From NCBI GenBank assembly GCA_013821455.1, contig JACDGS010000013.1, positions 16,904-80,903 on the forward strand: a stretch of DNA of 64,000 nucleotides, in the 5' to 3' direction. The notes under the pieces were generated by a model, which ran no database searches, had not been told where the DNA came from, and saw only the letters and a list, made by a program, of their open reading frames with translations. How positions within the stretch are numbered: position 1 is the stretch's first letter; the number at the start of each line of letters is the position of its first letter. Of the stretch, positions 3,175 to 43,976 are shown one piece after another. A program made the position numbers and the translations under genes. This DNA comes from Chthoniobacterales bacterium (GTDB lineage Bacteria; Verrucomicrobiota; Verrucomicrobiia; Chthoniobacterales; UBA10450).

Positions 3175-3198
3175 GCGCCCGGCAGGTTCTGCGATTTG

Positions 3199-15147: not shown

Positions 15148-15978
15148 ATGTCACACGCCGCGACCGAACTGATCATCGAAGCCGGACACACCGAGCGGAA
15201 TTACTGGCGCGATCTTTTTCGCTATCGCGAGCTGTTCTATTTTCTAGCCTGGCGCGATGTGCTCGTGCGCTACAAGCAAACCGTCATCGGCATTCTCTGG
15301 GCTGTCCTACGGCCGTTGCTGACAATGATCGTTTTCACCTTCGTTTTCAGCCGCATCGCCAAGTTACCCGCCGACGGCATCCCCTACCCGGTAATGGTTT
15401 TCGGCGCAATGCTGCCGTGGCAACTTTTTGCCCAGTCGCTAAGCGAAGGCAGCGGCAGCCTGATCAACAACGCCAACCTCATTTCGAAAGTTTACTTCCC
15501 GCGACTTATCGTGCCGGCGAGCGCGGTCATAGTCTCCTTTGTCGATTTCGCGATCTCGATGGTCCTGTTAGCCGTTATCATGGCGATCTATCGCGTATGG
15601 GTCGGCGTTCCTATTTTGATGCTGCCAGTCTTTACCCTGCTCGCGTTGCTCGCCTCGGCCGGCGCAGGTATTTGGCTCGCTGCCTTGAATGTGAAATACC
15701 GCGACTTCCGCTACGTCGTACCTTTCATTGTCCAGTTCGGCTTCTTCGTTTCGCCGGTCGGTTTCAGCAGCGCGCTCGTGCCGGAGAAATGGCGCTTGCT
15801 CTACGACTTCAATCCCATGGTAGGTGTCATCGACGGCTTCCGCTGGTCGGTCTCCAACGGCCGTAGCGCCTTCCCGCAGCAAAGCCTTCTTCTCTCACTT
15901 ATCACCATCGTTATCCTGCTCGTCAGCGGCATCTGGTATTTCCGAAAAACGGAACGCACCTTCGCCGATGTGATCTAG
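15148..15978 (+). CDS. ABC-2 type polysaccharide/O-antigen export permease (Wzm/TagG-like)
   Basis: 276 aa with six TM segments. N-terminal YRELFYFLAWRDVLVRYKQTVIGILWAVLRPLLTM is typical of ABC-2 exporters. No partner ATPase is adjacent. Confidence 0.85.
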   Translation: MSHAATELIIEAGHTERNYWRDLFRYRELFYFLAWRDVLVRYKQTVIGILWAVLRPLLTMIVFTFVFSRIAKLPADGIPYPVMVFGAMLPWQLFAQSLSEGSGSLINNANLISKVYFPRLIVPASAVIVSFVDFAISMVLLAVIMAIYRVWVGVPILMLPVFTLLALLASAGAGIWLAALNVKYRDFRYVVPFIVQFGFFVSPVGFSSALVPEKWRLLYDFNPMVGVIDGFRWSVSNGRSAFPQQSLLLSLITIVILLVSGIWYFRKTERTFADVI

Positions 15979-20165: not shown

Positions 20166-21028
20166 TGAAAGAATTGGCTACCACCTATCATTCCGGATTT
20201 CTCGAATTCGAGAGATTATCGAAATGTCCTGCCTGCGATCATGCCGATATTCCGACGGCGGTGGAACCGGACATAGCCCGATGTTCGGCCTGTCACCTTT
20301 ACTTTCGCAATCCTCGGCCGACTCAGGAAGAGATCGCGCGCTCTTACGATACGGGCGGGACCTTCGCCGCCTGGCAGGAGGAAGAAACAGCGCGAGCCGC
20401 GATGTGGGAACGGCGTCTTACACTCGTTAGGCGCTACGCTGCAAGGGGACGCCTACTCGATGTTGGCGCCGGAGACGGACGATTCCTTATCAGCGCTAAG
20501 GCGACGGGTTACCAAGTGACGGGAACCGAAGTATCTCGAGCGGGTGTAGACTATGCACGTCAGCGTGGTGTTGATATCCACCTCGGTCAGATCACCGATC
20601 TGCATTTGCCGAAGGTAACTTTCGATTTGGCTACCATCTGGCACGTGCTCGAACACGTTCCTGAGCCAGCCGCGGTCTTACGCGAGGTCTACGGATTGCT
20701 GCGGCCTGGGGGCATCCTCGTGCTGGCTGTACCTAACGAAGATAACTATCTCTTCCAACGACGATTCGGCAAGGCGAAGATTTCGGCTCCTTTTGGGGCA
20801 CTCGAATTTGGTGGTGAAATCCATCTCACCTACTTCCAGCCTTCCACTCTTCGCACCGCGCTTTGCGCGGCAGGTTACGAGTTCGTGAAGATTGGCGTGG
20901 ACGATGCCTACTACATTCGTGACTGGAAGATGCAGGCGAAGCTCATTCTTCAACAATCTTTAGCCTTTGTTCTTAGATGGCATTTTGCAGTAGCGATGTA
21001 TGCGATCGCGCGCCGTCCAAATTCATGA
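20166..21028 (+). CDS. class I SAM-dependent methyltransferase with N-terminal Cys4 zinc ribbon
   Basis: CPACDH...CSACHLYFRNP, then LLDVGAGDGRFL and IWHVLEHVPEP. ATG 20166 (MKELATTYH) lies just after the previous stop. Confidence 0.8.
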
Positions 21029-22449
21029 AAGACTTTTTTAAGAATAAGGCGCGGCGCCTTTACTCATCCGCCGTCGGCTGGTCGCTCGTTTTCACCATTG
21101 TCCGCGCAGGCGGAAACTTGCTTGTGCTACCCTTGATGTTACACAAGTTGAGCCCGGAAGATCTCGGACTTTGGTATGTCTTTCTTTCGTTAGGCGGGAT
21201 GGCTGCCTTAGTCGATTTTGGATTCTATCCCACGATGTCCCGTGTGACAGCGTATCTCTGGGCGGGCGCGGAAGAAATTCTGGGAACGGGTGTGGCGACG
21301 ATACCGCAGGAGGGTGATGCATCGCGCGAGCCGAATTATCGGCTCCTCGCCGACTTGGTTAAGACGATGCGGCTTTATTATCTGGGTATCGGCCTTCTTG
21401 TGACTGTCCTTATGGGTGGCGGCGGCACCTTCTGGATCATGCAAAAGGCGCACCTGCTACCTGACGCCCACGCCGTTCTTTGGGCTTGGTTGCTTTTCCT
21501 CGCGGGCATCTTCGTTAATATCAGCAGTGGCATGTGGCATCCTTTGCTCTCCGGAATCAATGAGGTCCGCTTGAACCAGCAAGTCTTCGTCTGTGGACTT
21601 GTTGTTAACTATGTGACGTCTGCCCTTGGCTTACTCATGGGAGTCGGACTGTTAGCTCCTGTCGCGGGTTATTTCCTCATGGGTCTCATCTCTCGAAATG
21701 GGGCGCGCACATACTTCAACCGACTTACTCGTGCGAAGCAGCACTCCGCCGCGGCGCGTTGGTCGTCTACCTTATTGCGGGGCCTTTGGCCGACGGCTTG
21801 GAGAACCGGTGTTGTTACGTTAGGTATCTACGCAACACTTAGCGTCGGCACACTGATTTGTTCCGCGTTCCTGGGTTTGAAAGCTGCCGCGTCGTATGGT
21901 TTAAGCATGCAGCTGGTCTTCGCCGCGGTGGCCATCGCCACGACCTTCATCCTCGTCAAGATTCCTCTGATCGCGCAAATGCATGTGCTCGGGAGGGAGA
22001 AGGAAATTAGCCGCGTTGTCTTTCCCCGCTTGCGGTGGTATTGGGGCGTCTATACCGGTTTGGCGGCGATGACAGTGCTATTCGGTAATCGAATCCTCCA
22101 GGGACTCCTGCATTCCCAAACGCAGCTACTTCCTAACTCACTTCTTATTGCGGTTTTTGTCGTTGGCGGCCTGGAGGGACATCACGGTATTTTCCGGGAG
22201 TTGGCAGTAACCGCTCACCGTAATCCTTTCGCGGCGCCAGTCGTAATCTCTGGCTTGGCTATCGTTATTCTCAGTTTCCTTATCGTCCCGTACGCTGGTC
22301 TTTGGGCCTTAGTGTTGGTTCCGGGTGTCGTCCAGCTGTCTTTCAACAATTGGTGGATCGTCAAGGTCGGGTTGCGATCGATGGGAGCTTCCGGTTGGGA
22401 CTACGGCAGAGGGTTACTCGGCCGTGGCCGCACGCGACTGTCAGCCTGA
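21025..22449 (+). CDS. polysaccharide flippase-like (Wzx/MOP superfamily) membrane protein
   Basis: ~474 aa from ATG 21025 with more than 10 predicted TM helices, in a glycan-locus context. No sharp motif. Confidence 0.6.
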   Translation: MKDFFKNKARRLYSSAVGWSLVFTIVRAGGNLLVLPLMLHKLSPEDLGLWYVFLSLGGMAALVDFGFYPTMSRVTAYLWAGAEEILGTGVATIPQEGDASREPNYRLLADLVKTMRLYYLGIGLLVTVLMGGGGTFWIMQKAHLLPDAHAVLWAWLLFLAGIFVNISSGMWHPLLSGINEVRLNQQVFVCGLVVNYVTSALGLLMGVGLLAPVAGYFLMGLISRNGARTYFNRLTRAKQHSAAARWSSTLLRGLWPTAWRTGVVTLGIYATLSVGTLICSAFLGLKAAASYGLSMQLVFAAVAIATTFILVKIPLIAQMHVLGREKEISRVVFPRLRWYWGVYTGLAAMTVLFGNRILQGLLHSQTQLLPNSLLIAVFVVGGLEGHHGIFRELAVTAHRNPFAAPVVISGLAIVILSFLIVPYAGLWALVLVPGVVQLSFNNWWIVKVGLRSMGASGWDYGRGLLGRGRTRLSA

Positions 22450-25452: not shown

Positions 25453-27012
25453 TTGAGCGCTTTGGCAATCTATCCTGCACCGATGGCATTCGCTAACCGA
25501 GATCTGATCGGGCCGCGCTTTGGCTTGTGGCTTATCACTGTAACGGGCCTACTGGCCTGCGCAGCTATCGGTGTGACCTTGGCAAACAATGCGGTCGCGA
25601 CAGTTATCCTACTGCTGACCCTGACTATCGTTTTCGCCTGGGTAATTGCGGCCAAGCAACGTTGGTGGCTGCTCGTGCCGGTGTCAGGTGTTCTGGGTGG
25701 CTATTTTTGGTTTGGCTTCAAACTCTACCCGCACGAAGTGGCGCTCGCCGGCAGCCTTATTCCTCTTTGCTTGGGGCGAGCAGTCCGCGCGCGAAATCCG
25801 GTTTCTCATAAGACTCCTTTTCCTAAAGTACTATATCTCCTGAGTATCTATCTGCTGGCACATTGGCTGGGAAGTAACATTTACAACAAGCTCGACAGTG
25901 GCGGCGGCTACGGCAACGTCACCCGTGCTTACTTCAATGCTTATTGGGTAATCATTTTCCTGATTGCCTTTTGGCGCTTTGGTTCCACCAAGTATATCCC
26001 GACCGCACTTTTCTTATGCTATGTTACAGCGGGTGCACGGCTCGTTGTTGGCTTGGTCACTTATTTCACGAACGCTTTCGCCTACATCCCTGTTGTTAAC
26101 TACGTTCTTCCTGGTTCCACCCATGATCGAGGAGCGGATCTACGGTTTTCGGGCCTGACCATGGCTACCCTAGCCGCATGTTACTTTCTAATTCATAGGG
26201 GCTTCGTTCGAAAATCGTTCCACCTTCTTGTTTTCCTCGTTAGCACCGTGGCTCTGCTTTTTGGGTCCGGCCGAACGGTTCTCGTCTTACTCTGCCTTAT
26301 TCCAATCTTTGCTGCTGTTCTTTATCGGAAGGTCGCTCCCCTTTTCGTCACTTCCTTTTTTGTCGGACTGATTCTTATAACCGTTAACGTTGCACCTACC
26401 CTCCTCGAGCCCTTGCCTTCCCGGGTCCAACGCTCCGCCTCCATTCTTCTCTTCTCATCGAACGAGGCTGACAAGTATGGACAGGCCGGTTCCAGCGATG
26501 AGTGGCATGCAAACCTGCGCGCCCTCGGGTTTAAGAAGTGGACTTCATCCTGGCATAACTTCCTTTTTGGGACCGGCATTCGTCCCTACGATAACGCCAT
26601 CAGCCAAACTATCCTGGGTGAAACAACGAACGAAGATTACCAGGAGTCGTCCGCTAAAGTTGGCGCCTACGAGTCGGGCTGGTGGACAGTCATCGCGGTA
26701 ACTGGCCTTACCGGAATCATACTTTATCTGACGGTCCTTCTCTACCTCTTGCGGCGTCTCGTGCCGATCTTATTTCGAGAAAAGGTAAAGGACCATGCGC
26801 ATGCCTTCGCCTTTATGGGTGTCTTTGGGATTGTCATTTGGCTGGGTCTCGGCTGGACTAATGGCGGCTTTCCCAGCACGGAAATCATGTTTGGATTCCT
26901 GGCTCTCCTGGCCTTGGAAGATCGGAAGGAAGCTCGCCGCCAGTCGCTCGCAGCAGAGGTTGAGTCCGGGGTCACGCAGCCACCTAAAATCCTCGCCGCC
27001 GCGGGCCGATGA
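25453..27012 (+). CDS. O-antigen ligase / polymerase-like (Wzy_C-type) membrane protein
   Basis: 519 aa with about 12 TM helices, a large loop after LLFGSGRTVLVLL, and glycan-locus context. Confidence 0.55.
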   Translation: MSALAIYPAPMAFANRDLIGPRFGLWLITVTGLLACAAIGVTLANNAVATVILLLTLTIVFAWVIAAKQRWWLLVPVSGVLGGYFWFGFKLYPHEVALAGSLIPLCLGRAVRARNPVSHKTPFPKVLYLLSIYLLAHWLGSNIYNKLDSGGGYGNVTRAYFNAYWVIIFLIAFWRFGSTKYIPTALFLCYVTAGARLVVGLVTYFTNAFAYIPVVNYVLPGSTHDRGADLRFSGLTMATLAACYFLIHRGFVRKSFHLLVFLVSTVALLFGSGRTVLVLLCLIPIFAAVLYRKVAPLFVTSFFVGLILITVNVAPTLLEPLPSRVQRSASILLFSSNEADKYGQAGSSDEWHANLRALGFKKWTSSWHNFLFGTGIRPYDNAISQTILGETTNEDYQESSAKVGAYESGWWTVIAVTGLTGIILYLTVLLYLLRRLVPILFREKVKDHAHAFAFMGVFGIVIWLGLGWTNGGFPSTEIMFGFLALLALEDRKEARRQSLAAEVESGVTQPPKILAAAGR

Positions 27013-27983
27013 GCTTGGATAGCGGGGAGATCGTTTTCTTTGAACCATGGAGCCTCGGCGATGTTATTATTGCCGCAGCGACACTGCGTGAGTTAGCGGA
27101 GCCGGCTACCTTGGCCTGTCACTCGTCCTGGCACTCACTCTTGCGCGCCACACTTAGGGATATTCTTAACCTAAGTCTCATCGCGGTTGATCTTCCTTAC
27201 ACGACCAGGAAACGCGCCAGCCCGTTCGACTCTCATCCGGAAGCAACTGACAGTCAGGCTTATTCGGCTTCGCGACTACTCAGTATTCGGGGCGATCTCC
27301 GTGACTGGATAGCTGCGCGCAAACTTTTCCCAAAGGCGAAGATCAGGATGACTGGGTGGGCGCGTTTTTTTGGGCGTAAGAGTGCGATGGTGAACTTTCC
27401 TTATCGAATCGGCTTGCTTCCGGTTACTAATCGCTATCGCTCGTGGGCGAGACTAGCTGGCGTTGATTACGCAAAAATTGCGGCTACCTATCGCCAAAGG
27501 CAGATGGAGTTACTAATTAGTAACAGCGTTGTTATTCACGTCGGCGCGCAGTGGCGCTCGAAACAGTTTCCGGAGGTGGCAGCATTGCGAGATATGTTAC
27601 AGTCACATCGTTATACCGTCAGGATTGTAGCTGGTCCTGGAGATCCGCTTCCGCCTGGCCTGGAAGAGAAAGATATCTCACGAGCCGCGGACGCCGTTCT
27701 TGTCGAAGCACTGCTGTCTGCCGGCTATGTTATAACAAACGATTCCGGCCCCATGCATCTCGCCGCTTATCTTGGGTGCCGCACTACCGCCGTAGTCAGG
27801 ACATCGCCAATTGAAGAATGGATTCCTCCCGCGACGACTATTGTTCGATCACCATTAACGCCGCGTGGTTATCGTCCAAATCGCCGCTATATGTCGGATG
27901 AGATTTTAACTGGCTGGCCGCGAATCGAGGAAGTAATCCGGACAATGGAAACGAAAGGGTTCTCACCAGAAGTAACAGAATGA
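27009..27983 (+). CDS. glycosyltransferase family 9-like
   Basis: FEPWSLGDVIIAAATLREL and TNDSGPMHLAAYLGCRTTAV. Confidence 0.6.
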   Translation: MSLDSGEIVFFEPWSLGDVIIAAATLRELAEPATLACHSSWHSLLRATLRDILNLSLIAVDLPYTTRKRASPFDSHPEATDSQAYSASRLLSIRGDLRDWIAARKLFPKAKIRMTGWARFFGRKSAMVNFPYRIGLLPVTNRYRSWARLAGVDYAKIAATYRQRQMELLISNSVVIHVGAQWRSKQFPEVAALRDMLQSHRYTVRIVAGPGDPLPPGLEEKDISRAADAVLVEALLSAGYVITNDSGPMHLAAYLGCRTTAVVRTSPIEEWIPPATTIVRSPLTPRGYRPNRRYMSDEILTGWPRIEEVIRTMETKGFSPEVTE

Positions 27984-28600
27984 AAGGTTTGCTCGCGCAC
28001 CTGCATGCTCCGATTTACCAGACTCGGCTGCGGGTTCTTACTGAGTTAATCCTTCCTTATCTTCACGAAGGCGACTCGATCCTCGACGTAGGTTGTGGAA
28101 ACGGGACTTTAGGCGCCAAGTTAGCTTCCGCGGCGGCGGGAAAAGGTCTTAGCGTTAAGGTAAGCGGTCTCGAGCGCTTCCCACGCGGTGGAGAACCAAT
28201 CCCGGTGTCGAGTTACAGCGGCGGTCGCTTCCCATTCGACGATCGCACCTTCGATGTCGTGATTTTAGCGGATGTACTGCATCACGAACTCGACCCGGAT
28301 GCTCTTCTGCGCGAATGCGCCCGCGTGGGCCGCCGCTATCTTGTGATCAAGGATCATCAGTTAGCCGGACCGCTCGCGAAAGCCCGCGTGAGCTTGATCG
28401 ACTGGGCTGCGAACGCGCCGTATGGAGTGAAGTGCCTTTACCGTTACAACAGGCCGGCGGAGTGGAATGCTATTCTCCACGACCTTAGCCTAACGACTGA
28501 AGGTCTCTATAGCTCTATTGACCTCTATCCACCCTTTTTCAACCTGCTTTTCGGTCGAAAATTACAGTATCTTGCGATTTGTCGAATACCTGAGAGTTAG
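27980..28600 (+). CDS. class I SAM-dependent methyltransferase
   Basis: ILDVGCGNGTLGAKL and FDVVILADVLHH. Confidence 0.75.
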   Translation: MKGLLAHLHAPIYQTRLRVLTELILPYLHEGDSILDVGCGNGTLGAKLASAAAGKGLSVKVSGLERFPRGGEPIPVSSYSGGRFPFDDRTFDVVILADVLHHELDPDALLRECARVGRRYLVIKDHQLAGPLAKARVSLIDWAANAPYGVKCLYRYNRPAEWNAILHDLSLTTEGLYSSIDLYPPFFNLLFGRKLQYLAICRIPES

Positions 28601-30066
28601 ATTGTGGCGCAATAGAGTACGATCATCGCCAAAACGCCCGCGATATAACTGGTGCGATCGGTCAGGGCGAAAACAACCGGGTCCTGTGGCACTTCTCCGC
28701 GGTTGGCTTTGAACCACAAGCGCGTGATCCAATAGAGAAAAAGCGGACAGAGAAGGAGCAGCAGAGTCGGCCGGCGATAAAGCAAACGGACTTCCGGACT
28801 CATGACATAAAGGACGAGAACGAGGACGGAGATCATGCCGCTTGCGACCCCGAAGGTTCCGATCGGTTCGAGGTCGGAGCGCAGATAGCCACGGGCCGCG
28901 ACAGGCACACCTTCGCGCGTGGTGAGAGAGCGTAACTCGGAATAGCGTTTCACCATCGCGAGGCCGAAAAAGAAAAAGACCGAGAAGGCAAGTAGCCAAT
29001 CAGAAACGCCGATGCCTGTGGCCGCTCCGCCTGCGAGTAGCCGCAAGGTGTAAAAGCAGGCGAGCACGACGACGTCGAGCATAACGACGCGCTTTAGCCA
29101 GGTAGAGTAAGCAATGTTACTTGCGAGATAGATACTACAGATAGCGAGAAATGTTACGCCGCCGAAATAACCTACGCTAAGTCCAGCGAGCAGCAGGCAT
29201 AGACATAGGATGGTAGCTACCGGGATAGGAATTCTACCCGAGGCGAGCGGACGCAGCCGCTTAGTCACATGCGCGCGATCTGCTTCCAAGTCGAGCATGT
29301 CATTTAACAAGTAAACGCCGGACGCAAGCAGGCAGAAGGCGACAAATGCGCCCGCCGCCGAAAGGAGAGCATGAGGGTTGGTCAGTTGATGCGCGGTAAG
29401 AACCGGGACAAAGACGAGGATGTTCTTGGCCCATTGATGCGGGCGGCAGGCGGCGATCAGGGCGGTGAGTCGGCCTTCGCTTTTGGGGAAGCTCTTCTCG
29501 ACCGGCGCGACGGAGTTCACAGCGGCAATGAAGCGTTTACTATTCGAAACCACAACAGCTCTTCGCGCCAGTCGCCAAACGGCGAGATCGGCGGATGAGT
29601 CTCCTGCATAATCGAAACCTCCCTGGCCAAAGCGTTCTTCGAGCTTTTGTGCCTTTACCGTTCCTTTGAGATTGATCGCGCCGTTGCTGGCGATAATCTC
29701 GCTAAAGAGTGAGAGGTGCTCCTGGACCTTGCGCGCAATCGATTCATCCGCCGCCGTGACCAGGATAAGTCTGCGGCCGCGCTCCTGTTCAGATTGCAGA
29801 TAGGAAAGCAAATCGCTCCGGTAAGGCAGGCCAGCGACAGCAAAGGCTACGCGACGGCCAGCCTCTTGCTTGACGTAGGCTCTACCTTTAACCAGCCAGA
29901 GAGGAATGAGCGCGAGCGACCATGGGGAATGTTTGAGCAAAAGAAGGAACGTTTCGTAAAGAAGATCCGTGCGCAGGAGAGTGTCATCGAGATCGACACA
30001 GAGCGGCGGCTCCTGACGCGCAAGGGAGTCATCAGATGTTGCAGCAGGCCTTGGCAGGTCACTCAT
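28597..30066 (-). CDS. HAD-phosphatase / UbiA-family polyprenyl-phosphate phosphoribosyltransferase-like fusion
   Basis: N-terminal HAD motif I CVDLDDTLLRTD. The C-terminal 8-9 TM UbiA domain has NDMLDLEADRAHVTKRLRPLASG, very close to the NDxxDxxxDRxHPxKRxRPIAxG signature of decaprenyl-phosphate phosphoribosyltransferases. Confidence 0.8.
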   Translation of the reverse strand: MSDLPRPAATSDDSLARQEPPLCVDLDDTLLRTDLLYETFLLLLKHSPWSLALIPLWLVKGRAYVKQEAGRRVAFAVAGLPYRSDLLSYLQSEQERGRRLILVTAADESIARKVQEHLSLFSEIIASNGAINLKGTVKAQKLEERFGQGGFDYAGDSSADLAVWRLARRAVVVSNSKRFIAAVNSVAPVEKSFPKSEGRLTALIAACRPHQWAKNILVFVPVLTAHQLTNPHALLSAAGAFVAFCLLASGVYLLNDMLDLEADRAHVTKRLRPLASGRIPIPVATILCLCLLLAGLSVGYFGGVTFLAICSIYLASNIAYSTWLKRVVMLDVVVLACFYTLRLLAGGAATGIGVSDWLLAFSVFFFFGLAMVKRYSELRSLTTREGVPVAARGYLRSDLEPIGTFGVASGMISVLVLVLYVMSPEVRLLYRRPTLLLLLCPLFLYWITRLWFKANRGEVPQDPVVFALTDRTSYIAGVLAMIVLYCATI

Positions 30067-31700
30067 CCGCGGCGACGCTAGCAGAGAAAGCCATCGTGCA
30101 AAAACAATCCTATTACTTCATGATCGGCGCCGCCGCTTTGGTCGTGGGCGCGTTGGCGGTGACGAATCAGAGTCTTTGGATAGATGAAGGCGCCGCGGCT
30201 TTGAAGGCGATGGAAGCAACCTTGCCCGCTTGGTGGCATAACTTGCTCGGCGAAGGTAACTCGAATCTGCAGTTGCTCGGAGAACTGCTCTATCTCTGGG
30301 GTTGGGAGAAGATTTTCGGCTCGTCGGAGGTGGCGTTGCGCGCTTCGAACATTCCATTTTTCGCCGGTGGAGTTACAGCGCTGGCGTGGGGATTTTCGCG
30401 CCAGCGCGCGCGGCAAAACGCCATCGTGCTTCTCGGCCTAACGAATGCGTTTCTTTGGTATTACTTGAGTGAGGCGCGACCCTATGTGGTTCTATTCTGC
30501 TTCGCCTCGATTATGGCCGCGTGCCTTTTCCGGCTCTTCCACGAGGAGTTAGACGAAGAGAATGCTAGGAGCTATCTCTCAAAGAGACGAGCGTGTCATC
30601 CCGAGCGGAGCGATGGACCTCACATGCGTCTCTCGGCATCGTTACAGGGAGAATCGAAAAACGCTTGGGGAGTCCTTCGCCGCGCTCTGCCGGCTCAGGA
30701 TGACAAGTCTATTTGTGAAATCGCTGCTCGTCGTTGGTTTGCTCTTTTCTGCATAGGAGTTATCGGGCTTTGCGCGACGAGCCTGATCGCTGTGCCATGG
30801 GCGTTGGGCGCAATGGGCGCAGTCATATATTGGAAAGGAGTGCGCGGCACTCTCAACTGCGCTCTGCGTTCCAAATTATGGTCGGGTTTGTTGATAGTAT
30901 GTCTCGGCCTCCTCGGTCTCTACTATCTCTGGACGCTACAGATTGGCGCGCGCGCCTCTGGTGTCGGGCGCACGAGCTGGAGTAATGTCGGCTATATCTT
31001 TTACGAACTGTCTGGCCTGGCCGGGTTAGGCCCCGGAAGACTAAGTCTCCGCGCGCAGGGGATGAGTGAACTGGCGCCTTTTCTACCGCAGCTTGCTGTT
31101 GGCGCGGCGGCTATCCTTCTTCTCTCGCTCTCAGGCTTTATCGCGGTAAAGGATCGATTACGGAAGCGGCACATCCTAGGTCTTATCATCGCAATCGCGC
31201 TGCCGTTCGCATTGGTTTTCGGTGCTGGCGTTACGGGACATATGCGATTGCTTGGGCGACATCTCACTCCACTTCTTCCCTACCTGCTCGCCCTTATGGC
31301 TCTCGGAGCAGCTCATCTATTCGCAGCACCGGCTATGTGGAAGAGAGCCATGGCTACTGCCGCGATATGTCTTCTTCTCTTCTCTTCTTTGCAGATTCGG
31401 CTCGCGCAGCGGCATCGGCGCGATGACTACCGCTCGGCGGCAATGTTCGCGCGGCAGGCTATCGCTTCCGGAGAAACAGTTTGGTGGCTGGCCGATGTGA
31501 GTACTGGATTGTATTATCAAGTCCCGATAGGTAGTCCGGGAGTCAGCACCTCGCCCGAAAACTCACCCGATCTCGTGCTTCTCTCGAAACCGGATACCTA
31601 TGACTCATCCGGCGTGGCGCGCACTTATCTCGCGCAGCACGAGTTCAAAGAGGTGAAAGTGCTACCAGCTTTTCAGATTTTTTCGCGCGTTTGGCGTTAG
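30036..31700 (+). CDS. GT-C fold membrane glycosyltransferase (GT39/ArnT/PMT_2-like)
   Basis: Many TM helices. First-loop motif NQSLWIDEGAAAL is the SLWxDE pattern of GT-C enzymes. The track start overlaps the divergent gene, so GTG 30096 or ATG 30120 is the likelier start. Contains a repeat element in frame (30594..30705). Confidence 0.65.
   Translation: MLQQALAGHSSAATLAEKAIVQKQSYYFMIGAAALVVGALAVTNQSLWIDEGAAALKAMEATLPAWWHNLLGEGNSNLQLLGELLYLWGWEKIFGSSEVALRASNIPFFAGGVTALAWGFSRQRARQNAIVLLGLTNAFLWYYLSEARPYVVLFCFASIMAACLFRLFHEELDEENARSYLSKRRACHPERSDGPHMRLSASLQGESKNAWGVLRRALPAQDDKSICEIAARRWFALFCIGVIGLCATSLIAVPWALGAMGAVIYWKGVRGTLNCALRSKLWSGLLIVCLGLLGLYYLWTLQIGARASGVGRTSWSNVGYIFYELSGLAGLGPGRLSLRAQGMSELAPFLPQLAVGAAAILLLSLSGFIAVKDRLRKRHILGLIIAIALPFALVFGAGVTGHMRLLGRHLTPLLPYLLALMALGAAHLFAAPAMWKRAMATAAICLLLFSSLQIRLAQRHRRDDYRSAAMFARQAIASGETVWWLADVSTGLYYQVPIGSPGVSTSPENSPDLVLLSKPDTYDSSGVARTYLAQHEFKEVKVLPAFQIFSRVWR
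30594..30705. mobile_element. MITE/REP-like inverted-repeat element (GTCATCC...GGATGAC family) inside the GT-C coding sequence
   Basis: tgtcatcccgagcggagcgatggacctc (30594..30621) and ctcaggatgaca (30694..30705) are terminal inverted repeats of the family also seen at 47447..47584 and 59943..59981. The ORF stays open and encodes CHPERSDGPHMRLSASLQGESKNAWGVLRRALPAQDDKS. Confidence 0.7.
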
Positions 31701-32376
31701 CCGGCTCTTTGGAAATCTCGGGGAAAATCTGGCGGATAAAGTCCTGAATCATCGTATCAGTCTGGGCTTCCGATCGTCCAAATAAGGTTAGACCTTCTGT
31801 GATATCGGACGCGACCGTGATGTAGGCCCAGCGCTGGTTATAACCTTTCAAGACGCGGTCTTTCACGTCGAACATCTCTCGCTCGATGTGCGAGGCAGTA
31901 AGATGATGATAACCCACGAACCAATAGTAGTTGAGGTTATAAAGTGAAATCATTTTGCCATCACGCAGTGGAACCTGGCGGACATCGTGCAGCCGCGTGA
32001 CCCCTAGCTTCTGTCCGGCTGCGATGGGTATTTTTAACTTAGTGGTGTCCGCGATGGTCCAGCCTTGCGCGGGGAGACAACGCTCCGGACGATGAATGCT
32101 GTTATCGAGATCGGCGCCGGAGAGAACGATCGAGACAAAGATAGAGTTACCCGAAGCGTCGGTGTAAACCTTGCGCGCGAACTCAGTGTCGCCCGCCAGG
32201 ACTTCCAACTCCCGCGTGCTGATCTGCTGATCGGTGCCATACCATTTCCCGACGAACTGCGGAAGGTCGAGATTGATGCCCGCAGGCTGGGAGTGAGTAG
32301 CAACCGGAAGAAGAAAGATGGCGCTAAGTCCTACTCCAACGAAAAGCAAAAGCACTGTCAGGCGCTTAGTAGTCAT
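31645..32376 (-). CDS. exosortase-associated EpsI family protein
   Basis: N-terminal TM anchor and the HRPERCLPAQGW motif typical of EpsI. Overlaps the exosortase gene by 11 nt. Confidence 0.75.
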   Translation of the reverse strand: MTTKRLTVLLLFVGVGLSAIFLLPVATHSQPAGINLDLPQFVGKWYGTDQQISTRELEVLAGDTEFARKVYTDASGNSIFVSIVLSGADLDNSIHRPERCLPAQGWTIADTTKLKIPIAAGQKLGVTRLHDVRQVPLRDGKMISLYNLNYYWFVGYHHLTASHIEREMFDVKDRVLKGYNQRWAYITVASDITEGLTLFGRSEAQTDTMIQDFIRQIFPEISKEPANAKRAKKSEKLVALSPL

Positions 32377-33331
32377 AGACGATCTCTTCTTTTTCCCGCA
32401 GTGCTTTTTTGCCGAGCCGTTTTCGGTAATCGATATTGAGGAGCCGGCTGAAGCCTAACATGCAAAGGAGCGCGATAGGAAAGAAGATCAACTGACTCGA
32501 CCAGTCATGATAAATGCCGCCGGCAAACTTAGGGAAGCCAAGATGGCCCAGAAGGATGATGGTAAAGATGCGCCCCGCGTTCCCTACGATCGCGAAAAGG
32601 ACGGAGGCGAGCAGGATAACTATCTTTTTCCAGATCTTCTTCTCACATAAGTGCACATAGACCGCCGTGAGCATGATCATGGCAATAAGGGAGCGGATGC
32701 CGCTGCAGCCTTCGGCGATTTCGAAGCCCCAATCGCCGTGCACAGGATGAATTGAAGTGCCTACGGTGTAGAGACCGATGCCGCAAAGGCCACTCAGGAC
32801 CTTCACCGCACCGATGATAAGGAATTGTAAGTTGAAGGTTGTTTGCTCGAGGGCGCCGAGCGGGATCATGAAGAGAAGGAGTGCGATCGGGAAGCGTAGG
32901 ATGCGCGCCATGTCCCTGCCCCAGAGATAGAGAACCATACCGTAAACTAGGAAAGGAAAACCAAAGAGAGCTACCCGCGGTTGAAAAGCGCGTGCAGCTA
33001 CGACGTAAAAGAAGACACCGAGCCCGATGAAGATAAGTCCAAGGTTGCTGCCGGCGACATGGGCGCGCCGGATACGGTCGCGATGATACCAAACCAGGAA
33101 TAGGACCAGGAACGGGATGAGCTTGCTATGTTCCTGGTTGTATTGTGGGAGGAAACGCAGCCAGGCCCACTCCCAGATCGGCTGGGATTGGTTCGCGTAA
33201 AGGCGGAGGTACCCGAAGAAGTAAATGACTGTCCCGGTAATAGCCGCGAGCAGAAAGGCTTGCAGAGGACGGCTCCTGATCCAGTTAAGCAGGGAGCGCA
33301 GGAAGCCGCCGAGTTCGGTGATCTGCTCCAT
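32366..33331 (-). CDS. exosortase (EpsH/Xrt family)
   Basis: 321-aa polytopic membrane protein with the catalytic-Cys motif AEGCSGIRSL. Paired with EpsI, and PEP-CTERM substrates are present in the window. Confidence 0.85.
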   Translation of the reverse strand: MEQITELGGFLRSLLNWIRSRPLQAFLLAAITGTVIYFFGYLRLYANQSQPIWEWAWLRFLPQYNQEHSKLIPFLVLFLVWYHRDRIRRAHVAGSNLGLIFIGLGVFFYVVAARAFQPRVALFGFPFLVYGMVLYLWGRDMARILRFPIALLLFMIPLGALEQTTFNLQFLIIGAVKVLSGLCGIGLYTVGTSIHPVHGDWGFEIAEGCSGIRSLIAMIMLTAVYVHLCEKKIWKKIVILLASVLFAIVGNAGRIFTIILLGHLGFPKFAGGIYHDWSSQLIFFPIALLCMLGFSRLLNIDYRKRLGKKALREKEEIVYDY

Positions 33332-33467: not shown

Positions 33468-33893
33468 TTATTCGACGACTTCGAGGCCCATCTGACGGGC
33501 GGTGCCGGCAATGATCTTGAAGCCGGCTTCGTCAGTGCGTGAGTTCAGGTCTTTGGCCTTCGTCTTCACGATGTCCATGATCTGTTTGCGCGTGACTTTG
33601 CCGACCTTGGTCTTGTTAGGTTCCTTCGAGCCGGCAGCGATGTTAGCGGCCTTCTTAAGCAGAACCGCGGCGGGCGGGCTCTTCGTGATAAAGGTAAAAG
33701 ACTTGTCCTTAAAGACCGTTATCACGACCGGAAGAATGTCACCGGCCTGCTTCTGGGTGGCGGCGTTAAACTCTTTGCAGAAGGCCATGATATTCACGCC
33801 GCGCGGTCCAAGCGCGGTGCCGACGGGCGGCGCGGGGTTGGCCTGGCCGGCTGGGATCTGCAGTTTGATGTGGGCGACGATTTCTTTAGCCAT
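33468..33893 (-). CDS. rplK: 50S ribosomal protein L11
   Basis: [44 protein letters not shown] is canonical L11. Confidence 0.95.
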
Positions 33894-34003
33894 GATTAAA
33901 TTTTCTTAGACAGGATTAAAGGGATTTACAGGATGGAAGAAAGAGAGAAGCGACCTGAAGAATTTTTAATCCTGTTAATCTTGTAAATCCTGTCTGTCTT
34001 TCG

Positions 34004-34573
34004 TTAGCCGCGTTCGACTTGCCAATACTCTAACTCTACCGGTGTCGCGCGGCCGAAGATGGTAACTGAGACACGGAGCTTGCCGCGTTCGGGATCGATC
34101 TCTTCCACGATGCCGCTTTGGTTTTGGAAAGGGCCGTCCGCCACCTTTACGGTCTCGCCGACCTCGAAGCTTACTTTCGGTTTGACCTTCTCTTCACGCT
34201 CACGCATTTGCGCGAGCATGTTATCGACTTCCGATTGCCGCATTGGGATCGGGCGATCCTTGGTTCCGGCGAAGCCGATGACGCCGGCCGTTTCGCGGAT
34301 GAAATACCAGGTGCGACCGATGAGTTGATTCTCCTCGTCGAGCAGGTGCATGTTGACGATGAGATAACCCGGGAAAAACTTTCGCGTTGTCTCACTCTTC
34401 TTGCCACGTTTGATCTCCGAGACGCGCTCGGTCGGAACGAGAACTTCATACACGACGTCACTCATCTCTTCGGTTTTGACGCGCTTCTCGATGTTGTCGC
34501 GTACTTTGTTCTCCTGCCCGGAGAGGACGTGCACGACGTACCATTGATCTTTTGCGGCGAGGACGTGAGCCAT
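34004..34573 (-). CDS. nusG: transcription termination/antitermination factor NusG
   Basis: WYVVHVLSGQENKV, FPGYLIV, and the KOW region GETVKVADGPFQNQSGIVEEIDPERGKLRV. Confidence 0.95.
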   Translation of the reverse strand: MAHVLAAKDQWYVVHVLSGQENKVRDNIEKRVKTEEMSDVVYEVLVPTERVSEIKRGKKSETTRKFFPGYLIVNMHLLDEENQLIGRTWYFIRETAGVIGFAGTKDRPIPMRQSEVDNMLAQMREREEKVKPKVSFEVGETVKVADGPFQNQSGIVEEIDPERGKLRVSVTIFGRATPVELEYWQVERG

Positions 34574-34574
34574 T

Positions 34575-34790
34575 TTACAAGCGAGTAAGGAAGTGAATCA
34601 CGGCAACGAGAATGAAATCGAAAAGCGCGACGTATCCGCCCAGGAGAAGCATGGCGACGATGACGACAATGGTAGAATCAGTCAGCTCCTTGTAGCGCTT
34701 CATCCCCTTCTGCTTCGGGTCCCAGGGCCAGGAGGCTTTCTGTAACTCGAGCCGTACTTCGGAGAAGAAGTTTTTGGTGCGCGCGATCAT
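34575..34790 (-). CDS. secE: preprotein translocase subunit SecE
   Basis: 71 aa. FFSEVRLELQKASWP plus a single C-terminal TM, in the canonical position between tRNA-Trp and nusG. Confidence 0.85.
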   Translation of the reverse strand: MIARTKNFFSEVRLELQKASWPWDPKQKGMKRYKELTDSTIVVIVAMLLLGGYVALFDFILVAVIHFLTRL

Positions 34791-34809
34791 TGCCTAACGA
34801 GTATAAGTC

Positions 34810-34882
34810 CACGCCAGGAGGGACTCGAACCCCCAACCGACGGTTTTGGAGACCGCAACTCTACCAATTGAGCTACTGGCGT
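34810..34882 (-). tRNA. tRNA-Trp (anticodon CCA)
   Basis: Minus-strand read: ACGCCAG-TA-GCTCAATTGGTAGAGT-T-GCGGT-CTCCAAA-ACCGT-CGGTT-GGGGGTTCGAGTCCCTC-CTGGCGT-G. It folds as a cloverleaf by hand and sits in the canonical tuf/secE position. Confidence 0.9.
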
Positions 34883-34896
34883 AAATTTTATTCCTG

Positions 34897-34966
34897 CTCC
34901 TACTCTTGCTCCTGCTCCTACTCTTTCCCCGCTCGCTGAGATCAGGAGCAGGAGCAAGAGCAGGAG
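34897..34966 (-). terminator. long hairpin between tuf and tRNA-Trp (terminator or processing structure)
   Basis: ctcctactcttgctcctgctcct (34897..34919) pairs with aggagcaggagcaagagcaggag (34944..34966) at 22 of 23 positions. On the transcribed strand it is followed by an A/U-rich tail (gaauaaaauuu). Confidence 0.5.
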
Positions 34967-34975
34967 AAAGAAGGG

Positions 34976-36160
34976 TTAGTCCAAAATTTCGCTCACGCGA
35001 CCCGCGCCCACGGTCTTACCACCTTCGCGAATAGCGAAGCGGATGGTCTTTTCCATGGCAATGGGTGTGCCGAGTTCGACTTCAACCGCGACGTTATCGC
35101 CGGGCATAACCATTTCCACGCCTTCGGCCAGCTTCACGCTGCCCGTGACGTCGGTCGTGCGGAAATAAAATTGCGGACGGTAGTTAGTGAAGAACGGCGT
35201 GTGACGGCCGCCTTCTTCCTTACTCAGGACATAAACCTCGGCTTTGAATTTCTTGTGCGGCTTGATCGAGCCCGGCTTGGCGATGACTTGCCCGCGCATG
35301 ACGTCTTCTTTCTTCACGCCACGCAGGAGCACGCCGACGTTGTCGCCCGCACGCGCTTCGTCGAGAAGCTTGCGGAACATTTCAATGTCAGTCGCTGTCG
35401 TCTTAGCAGTAGGAGTAAGGCCAACGATTTCGACTTCCTCCATTTTCTTGAGGATGCCGCGCTCGACACGACCGGTCGCGACGGTGCCGCGACCTTCAAT
35501 GTTGAACACGTCTTCCACCGGCATGAGGAAAGGCTGATCCACCGGACGCTCTGGCACGGGGATGTAATCATCGACCGCGGCGACCAGCGCGAGGATCTGC
35601 GCTTCCTGTTCGGGATCGCCATTCAGAGCCTTAAGGGCGCTGCCTTTTACGATCGGAATGCTGTCGCCCGGAAACTCGTACTGCGTGAGAAGGTCACGCA
35701 CTTCCATCTCAACGAGATCGAGAAGCTCGGGATCGTCGACCATGTCCACCTTATTCAGGAAAACGACGATCGACGGCACACCGACTTGGCGCGCGAGCAG
35801 GATGTGCTCACGGGTTTGCGGCATCGGACCATCAGCCGCGCTGACGACGAGAATGGCGCCGTCCATCTGTGCAGCGCCGGTGATCATGTTCTTCACATAA
35901 TCGGCGTGGCCCGGGCAATCGACGTGGGCGTAGTGGCGCTTTTCGCTCTGATACTCAACGTGCGCTGTTGAGATCGTGATACCGCGCTCTTTTTCTTCCG
36001 GTGCTGCGTCGATCGAATCATAGGCGCGCGCCTGGGCAAAGCCCTTCTTGGCGAGCACGGTGGTGATCGCGGCGGTGAGAGTAGTCTTGCCGTGATCGAC
36101 GTGACCGATTGTGCCGACGTTCACGTGCGGCTTATTGCGTTCGAACTTATCCTTAGCCAT
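34976..36160 (-). CDS. tuf: elongation factor Tu
   Basis: 394 aa. [31 protein letters not shown] and full-length EF-Tu-like sequence. Confidence 0.97.
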
Positions 36161-36235
36161 CTGGAATTCTCCTTGGGTTTCTTAGTCTTGCTGCTGTCTT
36201 TTCGTTAGGTGTTTTGGGCCGGCCGCGAACTCATC

Positions 36236-36311
<76 letters not shown>

Positions 36312-37445: not shown

Positions 37446-38417
37446 ATGTCCGACCTGCCCGCCGCAAGCATCGCCGACAGACCCGCGAAATCGGCGCGCA
37501 CGGCGGAAGGTTACGCGGCGGTTTTCGCCACGATTGCCATCTGGGCGACGCCGTCGCTCTTCCAATTTTATCTCAACCGTTACTACGACCCGTTCGCGCA
37601 GAATTTCTATCGCTACACCGTCGGTTGCCTCGCCATCCTTCCTTTCGCGATCTACCGCTTCCGCAAAAGTGGGCCGCGGCTCGACCTGCGCGTTCTCGGT
37701 GCCTGCCTGATCCCGGCGTTGCCTAACGTTGTCCACCAGATCACCCAGACGCTCTCTCTTTATTACATGGGGCCGGGCGTCTATGCGATTTTCACCCGCT
37801 CCAGTGTCATCATCACCGCGCTCCTCGCGCTTCTCTTTTTCCCGGAGGAACGCTGGGTCGTTAGGCAATGGCAATTCCAGGTGGGCACTTTCCTGGGATT
37901 GTTAGGCGCGGTCGGCGTGTTCTGGTTTCAGCCAGGATGGAATGCAGGACGAGTGCCGTTAGGCGGTTTGGCGATCGCATTCACCGCGACGTTTTGCTGG
38001 GCACTCTATGGCGTGCTCGTGAAACGCCCCTCGGCACGGCTCGGCACCATCCGCAGTTTTGGCGTCATCAGTTTCCTCACCTCCGCCATGCTGCTGCCAC
38101 TCACTCTTGCTTTTGGAAAAATCGCGACGCCGCTGCACGTCGGCGCACAGGTAAATGGCGTGCTCGCCATCTCCGCTGTCACCTGCATCAGCCTCGCGCA
38201 CGTTCTGTATTACATCGCCATTCGCGAGATCGGCGTCGCGCTTTCGCAGACACTGCAGTTGCTCAGTCCGGTGGGCGCGGTCTTGCTTTCGGCGTGGCTT
38301 TTTGGCGAACGGTTCTCGAGCGCGCAGATCTGGAGCGCGGCAATTTTGCTTTGCGGAGCGTTTCTCGCCACGCGCGTAAAACCTGCAGTAGCGCTGGAAA
38401 CGGCGGAAAATTTTTAG
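37446..38417 (+). CDS. EamA/DMT-family transporter
   Basis: 323 aa with ten TM helices in two EamA-like halves. Confidence 0.75.
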   Translation: MSDLPAASIADRPAKSARTAEGYAAVFATIAIWATPSLFQFYLNRYYDPFAQNFYRYTVGCLAILPFAIYRFRKSGPRLDLRVLGACLIPALPNVVHQITQTLSLYYMGPGVYAIFTRSSVIITALLALLFFPEERWVVRQWQFQVGTFLGLLGAVGVFWFQPGWNAGRVPLGGLAIAFTATFCWALYGVLVKRPSARLGTIRSFGVISFLTSAMLLPLTLAFGKIATPLHVGAQVNGVLAISAVTCISLAHVLYYIAIREIGVALSQTLQLLSPVGAVLLSAWLFGERFSSAQIWSAAILLCGAFLATRVKPAVALETAENF

Positions 38418-42634: not shown

Positions 42635-43853
42635 ATGAATCGATCATCCCTTAGTCTCCACAAGTTTTGCCTGACTTTCTCTCTGTTGGTGATCTCTGCC
42701 CTGATGGGCGCGCAGGCCGCGACCTCTGGGTCGTCATCGCTCGAGGAAGCTATCTCAAGCACTCTCCGCCAGCGGGCGAAACTAACTCCGTCGGCGGGCT
42801 CGCTTTTTTTTTGGAGAAGCTGTCTCGCTCTCCGGTAATCGAGCGCTCGTCGGTGCGCAAGTTGGCAGCAACGGCGCGACGGGCTCGGCCTTCGTCTTTT
42901 TGAAGACGGGAGCAACCTGGAGTCTGGAGGCTGAACTGAAAGCTTCGGATGGCGTCGCAGGGGACTCTTTTGGGATTGCGGTTTCTCTCTCGGGGAGCCG
43001 CGCTCTGGTGGGAGCGGCGAGCAGTGGAAATTCAGGCGCGGCTTATGTGTATGTCTTCGACGGAACCGCTTGGAGACAAGAAGCCAAACTCACTCCCACG
43101 GGCGGCCAAAATCCCCAAAACTTCGGGGTGTCGGTTTCGCTGGCGGGCGGTCGCGCGCTCATGGGCTCGTCCGCCGATACTGCTGCGACCGGTTCGGCCT
43201 ACGTTTTTACCCTGCGCAACGGGAGTTGGCGGCAAACGGCAAGACTAACCGCACCCGGCGGGATCGGAGGCGACCAGTTCGGAGACTCAGTCTCGCTTTC
43301 CGGCCAACGCGCTCTCATCGGAGCGTCTGGCGTCGCTAACTGCATAGGTTCGGCCTACGTTTACATCCTCAATGGAAATAGCTGGACGCTGGAGGCGACG
43401 CTCACTGCGTTAGACGGTCTTCGGTTCGATGACTTCGGTTGGTCGGTCTCGCTCTCCGGAGATCGAGCTGTCGTTGGCGCGCCCTTTTCCGACAACGCAG
43501 CCACAAGCGACGGCGCCGCCTACGTCTTCGTCTTCGACGGCGCAAGCTGGACGCAGGAAGCTAAATTATTGGCCTCGGATCCAATGCTCTCTAATAACCT
43601 CGGTTACTCGGTCTCGCTCTCCGGCCTGAGCGCCGTCATCGGAGCTCCCGACTCCGCCACGGGTGCGGCCTATCTCTTTGCCTTTGATGGCACGACCTGG
43701 AGTCAGCAGCAAAAGCTGACCGCGACCGATGGCATGACAGGCGACAGGTTTGGCTACTCCGTCTTCCTCTTAGGCACGCGCGCGGCAATCGGAGCCCAGG
43801 AGGCCGAGATCAATCAAAGCCCGACCGGCGCGGCATACATTTTCAACCCTTAA
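42635..43853 (+). pseudogene. secreted FG-GAP-like repeat beta-propeller gene, frameshifted in a T9 tract
   Basis: Signal peptide ORF MNRSSLSLHKFCLTFSLLVISALMGAQA (from 42635) stops at 42838. After T9 (42804..42812) the next frame reads GEAVSLSGNRALVGA...GSAFVF and runs into ORF 42900..43853 (repeats DSFG.SVSLSG.RAL.GA...GAAYVF). T8 would give one continuous ORF. Confidence 0.65.
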
Positions 43854-43976
43854 GGCGGGCTCCCGTCCTCCTCGTCTCGCGAAGAAGTGCCAGGACCAGT
43901 CCTTTACTCGTTAGGTATTCTTCGGAACCACGGAACGGCCTTGACCTTCGGGGTCGATCTCGATCATAGTTGCCGT

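Follow-up and report, generated by a model that had tools for sequence, protein, structure and literature searches.

Pentofuranosylation in the periplasm was worked out in Citrobacter youngae by Kelly et al. (PNAS 2024; PMC11127046), who showed that ORF15, in which a HAD phosphatase domain ('PRP') is joined to a domain resembling decaprenyl-phosphate 5-phosphoribosyltransferase (DPPRS), makes polyprenyl-phosphate-ribofuranose (polyprenyl-P-Ribf) from phosphoribosyl pyrophosphate (PRPP). In vitro, ORF15 produced farnesyl-P-Ribf, and its D18A variant accumulated the 5-phosphate form; a small transporter with four transmembrane (TM) segments, ORF14, was proposed as the donor flippase, and the GT-C enzyme ORF12, which is the founder of CAZy family GT136 and has ArnT as its closest sequence relative, decorates the O antigen with alpha-Ribf in the periplasm (PMC11127046). 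Epimerases, where present, turn the donor into xylofuranose (Xylf; GalE-like ORF13) or arabinofuranose (Araf; DprE1/E2), and three-component systems of this kind were called widespread in that study, the survey of which does not include Verrucomicrobiota and the supplementary information of which mentions neither exosortases nor Verrucomicrobia (PMC11127046). Here we describe a divergent gene pair in a 64,000-nucleotide stretch of contig JACDGS010000013.1 from a Chthoniobacterales soil bacterium (hereafter the window, at its full length). The pair encodes a HAD-UbiA fusion protein (28597-30066, minus strand, 489 aa) and a GT-C protein (longest open reading frame (ORF) 30036-31700, plus strand, 554 aa), and lies next to genes for an exosortase and an EpsI protein. 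We consider it likely that these two genes are the donor-synthesis and transfer halves of a periplasmic pentofuranosylation system of the C. youngae type. An earlier reading made from the letters of the window (the sequence-only reading) had proposed periplasmic pentofuranosylation outside Actinobacteria; this proposal is supported by the data presented below, but the process itself was demonstrated in C. youngae in 2024 (PMC11127046).

The fusion protein consists of a HAD phosphatase domain (approximately residues 20-195) and a UbiA-fold phosphoribosyltransferase domain (approximately residues 200-489), in agreement with the two domains named by the sequence-only reading. Pfam recognised the UbiA domain with an E value of 1.9e-20 and the HAD domain with 26.0 bits, just below the 27-bit cutoff, and the NCBIfam model NF006088/PRK08238 covered residues 14-488 at 608 bits (cutoff 351). 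The second-best NCBIfam models were three DPPR-synthase models, which scored 137-177 bits and were sub-threshold, and the remaining prenyltransferase models (quinone, heme, chlorophyll and archaeal-lipid) gave 46 bits or less. A sequence search of the PDB returned the Mycobacterium tuberculosis (Mtb) DPPRS, 8J8J, at E 3.7e-29, followed by a next match at E 1.8e-4. The same structure was the best Foldseek match (target template modelling score (TM-score) 0.83) of an AlphaFold2 (AF2) model with a predicted local distance difference test score (pLDDT) of 92.5, in which the N-domain resembles HAD phosphatases of the SerB type. Many fusion homologs bear the JGI name '4-hydroxybenzoate polyprenyltransferase/phosphoserine phosphatase', which would make the UbiA domain an aromatic prenyltransferase. 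We regard this identity as effectively refuted and its probability as close to nil, since the ubiA, heme o synthase and chlorophyll synthase models gave 18-30 bits against the 137-177 bits of DPPRS, the PDB sequence and fold searches placed DPPRS far above other UbiA enzymes, and the DPPRS-specific motif NDxxDxxxD...KRxRP is invariant. The UbiA domain thus groups with DPPR synthases and not with quinone or heme prenyltransferases, as the PDB, Foldseek and NCBIfam results agree.

The catalytic residues of both domains are conserved in an alignment of 71 fusion homologs from many phyla. The HAD motif DLDDT begins at residue 25, and D25, D27, K138 and D160 were conserved in all 71 of the 71 sequences and T104 in 69. 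In the UbiA domain, the motif NDMLDLEADRAHVTKRLRPLASG aligned with NDVRDVEADREHPTKRFRPIAAG of Rv3806c, bearing out the earlier remark that it comes close to the signature of the mycobacterial enzyme. The protein carries the loop-II N-D-x-x-D-x-x-x-D and the loop-IV R-x-x-E of the DPPRS subtype, and N255, D256, D259, D263, R374 and E377 were invariant, or nearly so, in the homologs and identical in Rv3806c. Domain order and residue spacing are those of ORF15, in which the mutated residues (D18; N247/D248/D251/D255; R366/E369) have numbers that are lower by 7-8 throughout. Judged from these residues and profiles, the fusion protein is very probably a bifunctional HAD phosphatase and polyprenyl-phosphate 5-phosphoribosyltransferase, closest to Mtb DPPRS, with polyprenyl-P-ribofuranose as its predicted product. 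The idea that both steps reside on one polypeptide is supported as well, but had already been demonstrated in C. youngae (PMC11127046). The fused phosphatase-synthase architecture is not new, having been known since 2024 and being modelled by NF006088.

The GT-C protein matched no Pfam family and no PDB sequence, and its sole NCBIfam match was a weak, N-terminal one to mannosyltransferase MT1671 (E 6e-5); a match of the ArnT type was found in none of Pfam, NCBIfam and the PDB. We detected 559 homologs, all named 'hypothetical'. An AF2 model based on an 86-sequence alignment reached a pLDDT of 92.3 and a predicted TM-score (pTM) of 0.91, and the top 23 PDB matches of this model in Foldseek were all GT-C enzymes (ALG12, STT3, ArnT, AftD, Pmt4, AftA, PglB, ALG9, AftB and PimE), followed by unrelated transporters at a probability below 0.1. 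The SLWxDE first-loop motif, from which the sequence-only reading had recognised a GT-C enzyme, is present as SLWIDEG at residues 46-52, after TM1, with S, W, D and E invariant in the 86 homologs. D50 and E51 fall in the first extracytoplasmic loop, the site of the catalytic acids in GT-C enzymes. The GT-C here comprises about 490-530 aa, and its model ends in a small C-terminal alpha/beta domain. On this confident model, we take the 554-aa protein to be a glycosyltransferase of GT-C fold from an undescribed sequence family, that is, a GT-C clade without Pfam, NCBIfam or, probably, CAZy assignment. Since the homologs begin at an equivalent position and the public gene call gives a protein of 526 aa, the start codon is likely to be GTG 30096 or ATG 30120, which gives a likely gene at 30096-31700 and a probable length of 526-534 aa. 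The fusion and GT-C genes are therefore separated by about 29-53 bp and do not overlap.

The published description of ORF12 sets it apart from the GT-C protein of the window in length (652 aa as compared with about 490-530 aa), in motif (D31/E34/Y35, besides H106 and R349/Y350, as compared with WIDEG) and at the C-terminus, where ORF12 has a beta-rich carbohydrate-binding module (CBM) and the protein here its small alpha/beta domain. In Burkholderia multivorans, the gene order is fusion, multi-TM protein of about 406 aa and 112-aa EamA/SMR protein; the GT-C family gave no hidden Markov model (HMM) match to this multi-TM partner, and the hhalign probability was 0.2%. By these profile comparisons, the GT-C protein here differs in sequence family from at least one GT-C partner of the kind described by Kelly et al., namely that of B. 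multivorans. Size, motif, C-terminal domain, the lack of ArnT-type matches and the dissimilarity to the B. multivorans partner speak indirectly against a place in GT136. A tblastn search of plasmids and phages, made for a comparison of the GT136 type, returned 104 plasmid records and one phage record, and in a Granulicella plasmid locus no GT-C gene adjoined the fusion.

The divergent arrangement of the fusion and GT-C genes was kept in 16 Verrucomicrobiota genomes, and rearranged metagenomic loci still held both genes, as fusion-methyltransferase-GT-C, on the same strand, or 4 kb apart. In neighbour-joining trees, the clade of the GT-C protein of the window consisted almost wholly of members accompanied by the fusion, and the fusion of the window fell in a clade whose members all have the GT-C gene and none DprE-like genes. 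A Sphaerotilus contig (65% GC) contains an operon of GT-C, 131-aa EamA-SMR protein and fusion, the GT-C being of the same family; going by its gene content, this operon is a textbook three-component system and lends cross-phylum support to the pairing. Across 27 loci of the fusion and GT-C genes, the fusion was retained in 26, GT-C in 25, the exosortase in 18, EpsI in 17 and a methyltransferase in 15, several of the shortfalls being short contigs. This methyltransferase is a class I enzyme dependent on S-adenosylmethionine (SAM), of 206 aa and with no TM segment (27980-28600, plus strand; Pfam Methyltransf_11/23/25, MetW), the gene for which is convergent with the fusion gene and overlaps its 3' end in the window. 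Its orthologs adjoin the fusion and GT-C genes in 15/27 loci, including the rearranged loci L011, L015, L102, L139, L141 and L158, and in L102, L139 and L141 the methyltransferase gene lies between the two. We found that the methyltransferase, fusion, GT-C, EpsI and exosortase genes form a conserved five-gene association across rearranged Verrucomicrobiota loci. The three GT9 genes, a 519-aa Wzy_C-like protein, a Wzx-like protein and an EamA protein were retained in the close synteny group only. Because of this restriction to close relatives, the neighbours recalling a lipopolysaccharide (LPS) core locus (GT9 x3, Wzy_C-like and Wzx-like) were rejected as core partners.

The adjacency of the two genes might simply be inherited synteny, in which the fusion would serve the LPS-core-like cluster and the GT-C protein an exosortase locus with another lipid-linked donor. 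The fusion gene does have the GT9 cluster on one side and the exosortase genes on the other, and distant GT-C members work with GtrA/GtrB-like modules and without the fusion. However, the GT9, Wzy_C-like and Wzx-like genes are lost in divergent loci while the fusion and GT-C genes are kept, the trees of the two genes agree for the partner-bearing clade, and both families are also joined in the Sphaerotilus operon, outside this phylum, so that we find this explanation improbable and prefer to read the two genes as functional partners.

From the folds, the catalytic residues and the gene linkage, we infer the substrates, the sugar, the flipping step and the acceptor, and propose the following scheme. 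On the cytoplasmic face, the UbiA-fold domain would load a polyprenyl phosphate, presumably undecaprenyl phosphate, with 5-phosphoribose taken from PRPP, and the fused HAD domain would remove the 5-phosphate to give polyprenyl-P-ribofuranose. O-methylation of the sugar by the soluble, co-conserved methyltransferase may follow. The lipid-linked sugar would be flipped by some transporter, and the GT-C protein would use this donor at the outer side of the inner membrane, with the invariant D50/E51 as putative catalytic acids. The module would be functionally tied to the adjacent exosortase/EpsI.

Regarding the sugar, the sequence-only reading had noted that no DprE1/DprE2-like epimerase is visible and had favoured ribofuranose over arabinofuranose. 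The first of these statements was confirmed in the window by Pfam and HMM searches: FAD_binding_4/DprE1-like, SDR/DprE2-like and GalE-like/Epimerase-family genes were absent from the 64-kb window among ORFs of at least 150 aa (Pfam), and DprE1/E2-like genes were absent among window ORFs of at least 80 aa, as searched with HMMs built from the linked genes of other loci. In addition, neither DprE1/E2-like nor Epimerase-family genes were found within +/-10 kb in 16 syntenic relatives. Since no epimerase is linked to the fusion over these distances, the second statement is supported too, and the most economical prediction is that the sugar most likely stays ribofuranose. The co-conservation of the methyltransferase with the pair hints that the sugar may be a methylated pentose. 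In 64 distant fusion loci (from Aquabacterium, other Burkholderiales, Gammaproteobacteria, Acidobacteriota, Chlorobiota and others), a DprE1-like gene (FAD_binding_4) was present in 45/64, a DprE2-like gene (SDR) in 42/64, and an LPG_synthase_TM gene directly upstream in 33/64; the latter was found neither in the window nor in the 16 syntenic loci. In L016-L077 (for example L025 8889-9974, L038 3658-5055, L063 9522-10370), the operon reads LPG_synthase_TM, fusion, DprE1-like and DprE2-like, with these genes present in the shares just given, and the LPG_synthase_TM protein, which is MprF-flippase-like, is a plausible third type of flippase for lipid-linked pentoses, unlike the MATE and SMR types of Kelly et al.

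An alternative is that the donor sugar is something other than ribofuranose: either the adjacent methyltransferase or enzymes with genes elsewhere would turn the lipid-linked ribose into a methylated pentose, arabinofuranose or xylofuranose. In favour of this possibility, most fusion homologs in other phyla precede DprE1/E2-like genes, the methyltransferase is co-conserved with the fusion of the window clade, and in the Citrobacter O2 system one additional epimerase is enough to alter the sugar, both donors being accepted by the GT-C enzyme (PMC11127046). Known systems encode their epimerases within the locus (PMC11127046), whereas the 64 kb here and the +/-10 kb in the 16 relatives hold no DprE1/E2-like or Epimerase-family gene; we consider a donor other than ribofuranose to be unlikely, though by no means far-fetched. 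With ribofuranose as the predicted donor, the DprE-free fusion clade would point to ribofuranose-containing, possibly methylated, surface structures in these bacteria.

As for the flipping step, no ORF of 60-200 aa with at least three TM segments was found between 11 and 41 kb of the window, and the flippase that belongs to the three-component definition is missing beside the pair. A small flippase gene is present in L078 and in the B. multivorans locus L165. The flippase candidates in the window are a Wzx-like (MOP superfamily) flippase-like protein of 490 aa (20977-22449, plus strand; NF041503 WZX_like, 322 bits, cutoff 300) and an EamA protein with 10 TM segments (37446-38417, 5.7 kb away), both of which are conserved among close relatives only.

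The physical link of the pair to EpsI and the exosortase, to which the sequence-only reading had drawn attention, proved to be real and conserved well beyond the source genome. The EpsI-family exosortase-associated protein (31645-32376, minus strand) matched PF11984 (E 1.4e-23) and TIGR02914 (60.5 bits, cutoff 42.8), and the exosortase, of the 8-TM EpsH family (32366-33331, minus strand), matched PF09721 (E 2.7e-42) and TIGR02602 (131.7 bits, cutoff 105.55). Regarding its subtype, the XrtA model gave 140 bits, below the 208-bit cutoff, and no specific NCBIfam model matched. Both genes are convergent with the GT-C gene, and EpsI overlaps its 3' end by 56 nt. Two tandem PEP-CTERM proteins (2461-3198 and 3199-3921, minus strand), with tails containing ...IPEPATGVLALCGGLGLVAGWRRRR... 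and ...VPEPATYLLLGAGALLFLAPKVRRLRR..., are encoded 29 kb from the exosortase and are candidate substrates of the enzyme. The window accordingly contains an exosortase/EpsI system, with exosortase and EpsI models above their cutoffs and two PEP-CTERM proteins.

Members of the GT-C family without the fusion still adjoin exosortase and EpsI genes, as in L082, where these are 2-3 kb away. Among 21 non-syntenic GT-C loci, chosen because their flanks reach 3 kb or more in both directions, exosortase/EpsI genes were within 5 kb in 9, a GtrA/GtrB-like module was present in 10 and the fusion in 5, with 4 loci showing none of these. Many short contigs show the exosortase gene immediately downstream of the GT-C family gene, and in many loci the genes for exosortase, EpsI and a Bac_transf priming transferase follow the GT-C gene in this order, spaced by tens of bp. 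GtrA and a GtrB-like GT2 are found beside the GT-C family gene in L083, L089, L090, L095, L096, L099, L155 and L160, the order in L083 being GT2 and GtrA, FAD oxidase, GT-C, exosortase, EpsI and Bac_transf. L083 (4820-6375) and likewise L084 encode a 224-aa HAD-only protein (E 1e-41 to the N-domain of the fusion), followed by fragments of 83 aa and 54 aa. This is possibly a decayed HAD-UbiA fusion, in which case replacement of the donor module may be in progress. A GT-C protein that is kept beside the exosortase through exchanges of its donor module offers a specific, testable candidate for a role in PEP-CTERM systems.

What exosortase attaches PEP-CTERM proteins to, and whether the cargo is glycosylated, has been a question since the bioinformatic definition of these systems in 2006. 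Our search of the accessible literature found no paper linking exosortase/PEP-CTERM with GT-C enzymes or a lipid-linked pentose donor, and the NCBIfam models include neither an exosortase-associated GT-C family nor a lipid-linked pentose donor. The exosortase association suggests a role for periplasmic glycosylation in PEP-CTERM systems. Because the characterised ORF15-type systems modify glycans and priming transferases are frequent neighbours, our leading candidate for the acceptor is an exosortase-associated surface polysaccharide, either an extracellular polysaccharide (EPS) or an LPS-like glycan, an assignment that we hold at a little short of an even chance. The acceptor could also be a protein, with the GT-C enzyme modifying PEP-CTERM cargo or building a sugar-bearing acceptor for the exosortase, and with the five genes forming one protein-maturation machine. 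This is suggested by the position of GT-C genes beside exosortase/EpsI in several clades, with the fusion and with GtrA/GtrB-like donor modules alike, by the survival of just the methyltransferase, fusion, GT-C, EpsI and exosortase genes through rearrangement, and by the two PEP-CTERM proteins encoded in the window. A precedent is TfpW, a GT-C enzyme reported to use DPPRS-derived polyprenyl-P-Araf on a protein, pilin. Nevertheless, in other loci the cargo genes lie away from the module, the Bac_transf priming transferase in many operons points to a polysaccharide pathway, and every characterised ORF15-type system modifies glycans, so that a protein acceptor appears to us a minority possibility as compared with the surface polysaccharide. 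The lack of cargo co-location by itself we counted as neutral for the acceptor question.

A bolder version, which we put forward as a speculation, is that the GT-C family is a dedicated part of one class of exosortase systems, glycosylating PEP-CTERM cargo in the periplasm or building the glycan acceptor of the exosortase. The GT-C enzyme would then use whichever donor its locus supplies, ribofuranose here (fusion) and a hexose elsewhere (GtrA/GtrB). If true, a dedicated GT-C enzyme would give the first concrete biochemical handle on how exosortases deal with their substrates, and the flippase-free core would hint at a second role, in donor flipping, for one of the membrane proteins of the core.

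Several observations weigh against a C. youngae-type system at this locus or against parts of it. A flippase of the ArnE/EmrE/GtrA type was found neither in the window nor in the conserved core. The function of the GT-C family is predicted for every member. Nearly all pair-bearing loci come from one phylum, and the linkage therefore partly reflects shared descent. Epimerases could be encoded elsewhere in the genome, the search having covered 64 kb. Other GT-C clades adjoin GtrA and a GtrB-like GT2 instead of the fusion, and donor specificity therefore varies, so that belonging to the family does not by itself reveal the donor. Genes for PEP-CTERM cargo do not cluster with the module, occurring within 10 kb in 2/100 loci. 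Finally, the GT-C gene here carries a 54-codon insertion that might affect activity.

This insertion (30562-30723, plus strand, about 162 nt) is an in-frame palindromic element resembling miniature inverted-repeat transposable elements (MITE) or repetitive extragenic palindromic (REP) sequences. It is missing from 10 aligned protein homologs and, at the DNA level, from 8 orthologous genes. Its terminal-inverted-repeat core spans 30594-30705, with 13-nt repeats TGTCATCCCGAGC and GCTCAGGATGACA, and the insertion encodes ...NARSYLSKRRACHPERSDGPHMRLSASLQGESKNAWGVLRRALPAQDDKSICEIAA... in the protein. It is the only low-confidence part of the GT-C model (pLDDT 51-69) and comes after the second and before the third long helix of the model, where a cytoplasmic loop is probable. 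The terminal motif GTCATCCYGAGCG occurs 5 times in the window as compared with 0.22 expected. We found a further full copy of the element in an intergenic position at 47450-47581, upstream of a 2876-aa ORF, and a half copy at 59945-59957, between two alpha-amylase-family genes, with only the termini being conserved among the copies. An Rfam search of the whole window returned just two tRNAs, and the palindromic element is therefore not a known RNA family; as compared with shuffled sequence, its fold was not convincingly more stable (z = -1.8). We take the element to resemble the in-frame palindromic elements of Rickettsia.

The window has a GC content of about 56%, and its closest relatives are metagenome-assembled genomes of Verrucomicrobiota/Chthoniobacterales. 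A scan of the divergent intergenic region for promoters and terminators gave no sigma-70-like site, a result that is uninformative for this phylum. The 519-aa protein (25453-27012), with about 9-10 TM segments, has no Pfam or NCBIfam match; its gene is flanked by three GT9 heptosyltransferase-like genes, its family comprises 64 detected members, nearly all from Chthoniobacterales, and one relative with 33% identity carries Wzy_C (O-antigen ligase/polymerase). PDB sequence searches with the 490-aa and 519-aa proteins returned nothing useful. An ABC-2 permease for polysaccharide export (Wzm/KpsM-like) is encoded at 15148-15978. No ABC ATPase gene was found in its neighbourhood when ORFs of 150 aa or more were considered, and the closest ABC_tran gene, at 8560-9255, stands in a different context. 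The cluster of this permease also holds the Wzx-like protein, and the markers of export pathways are thus mixed. Directly beyond the exosortase, a conserved block of translation genes (33468-36311) comprises an L11 region, a NusG-like gene (34004-34573), tRNA-Trp, EF-Tu (34976-36160) and tRNA-Thr, the L11 and NusG assignments being made by eye from the translations; this block separates the exosortase from the EamA transporter. The 2876-aa ORF (47938-56568) lies downstream of genes for FG-GAP and Kelch-repeat proteins (42900-46362).

In comparison with known systems, the locus is most like C. youngae O1/O2, with a HAD-DPPRS fusion bearing the same catalytic residues, a GT-C gene beside it and, as predicted for a ribofuranose donor, no epimerase, in a Gram-negative bacterium. 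It is unlike C. youngae in having no 4-TM flippase gene and an extra co-conserved methyltransferase, in belonging to the phylum Verrucomicrobiota, and in embedding the module with exosortase/EpsI as compared with an O-antigen locus of the ABC-transporter type. With the mycobacterial decaprenyl-phosphoryl-arabinose (DPA) pathway it shares a homologous first enzyme (29% identity to Rv3806c; target TM-score 0.83) and, by prediction, a PRPP-derived lipid-linked pentofuranose used by GT-C enzymes outside the cytoplasm. Unlike in mycobacteria, where a separate PAP2-type phosphatase, Rv3807c, is used, the HAD domain is fused here, DprE1/E2 are absent, the GT-C protein is not of the Emb/Aft family, and the carrier is presumably undecaprenyl as against decaprenyl phosphate. 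The D-arabinofuranosylation of pilin in Pseudomonas aeruginosa/paraeruginosa likewise pairs a DPPRS homolog with a GT-C enzyme in a Gram-negative bacterium, but that system has epimerases, an unfused phosphatase and the pilin-specific TfpW encoded beside the pilin gene. The GT-C family also resembles the serotype-converting GT-C component of the Gtr systems of O-antigen glucosylation (GtrA, GtrB, GtrC), whereas GtrA and GtrB are missing from the window, including the neighbourhood of its GT-C gene, the donor module of which is the putative PRPP-dependent fusion.

Exosortase (EpsH/EpsI) PEP-CTERM systems are said, following Haft, to be associated with EPS loci. The locus described here is similar to such PEP-CTERM/EpsH/EpsI loci in placing exosortase and EpsI among genes of polysaccharide biosynthesis, with Bac_transf adjoining in many related loci. 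Taken together, these comparisons would extend the known chemistry of lipid-linked pentofuranose donors to Verrucomicrobiota, an abundant soil phylum with poorly characterised surface glycans. As compared with the systems above, what is new here is the undescribed GT-C family, a core without a recognisable flippase, the methyltransferase partner and the conserved association with exosortase and EpsI.

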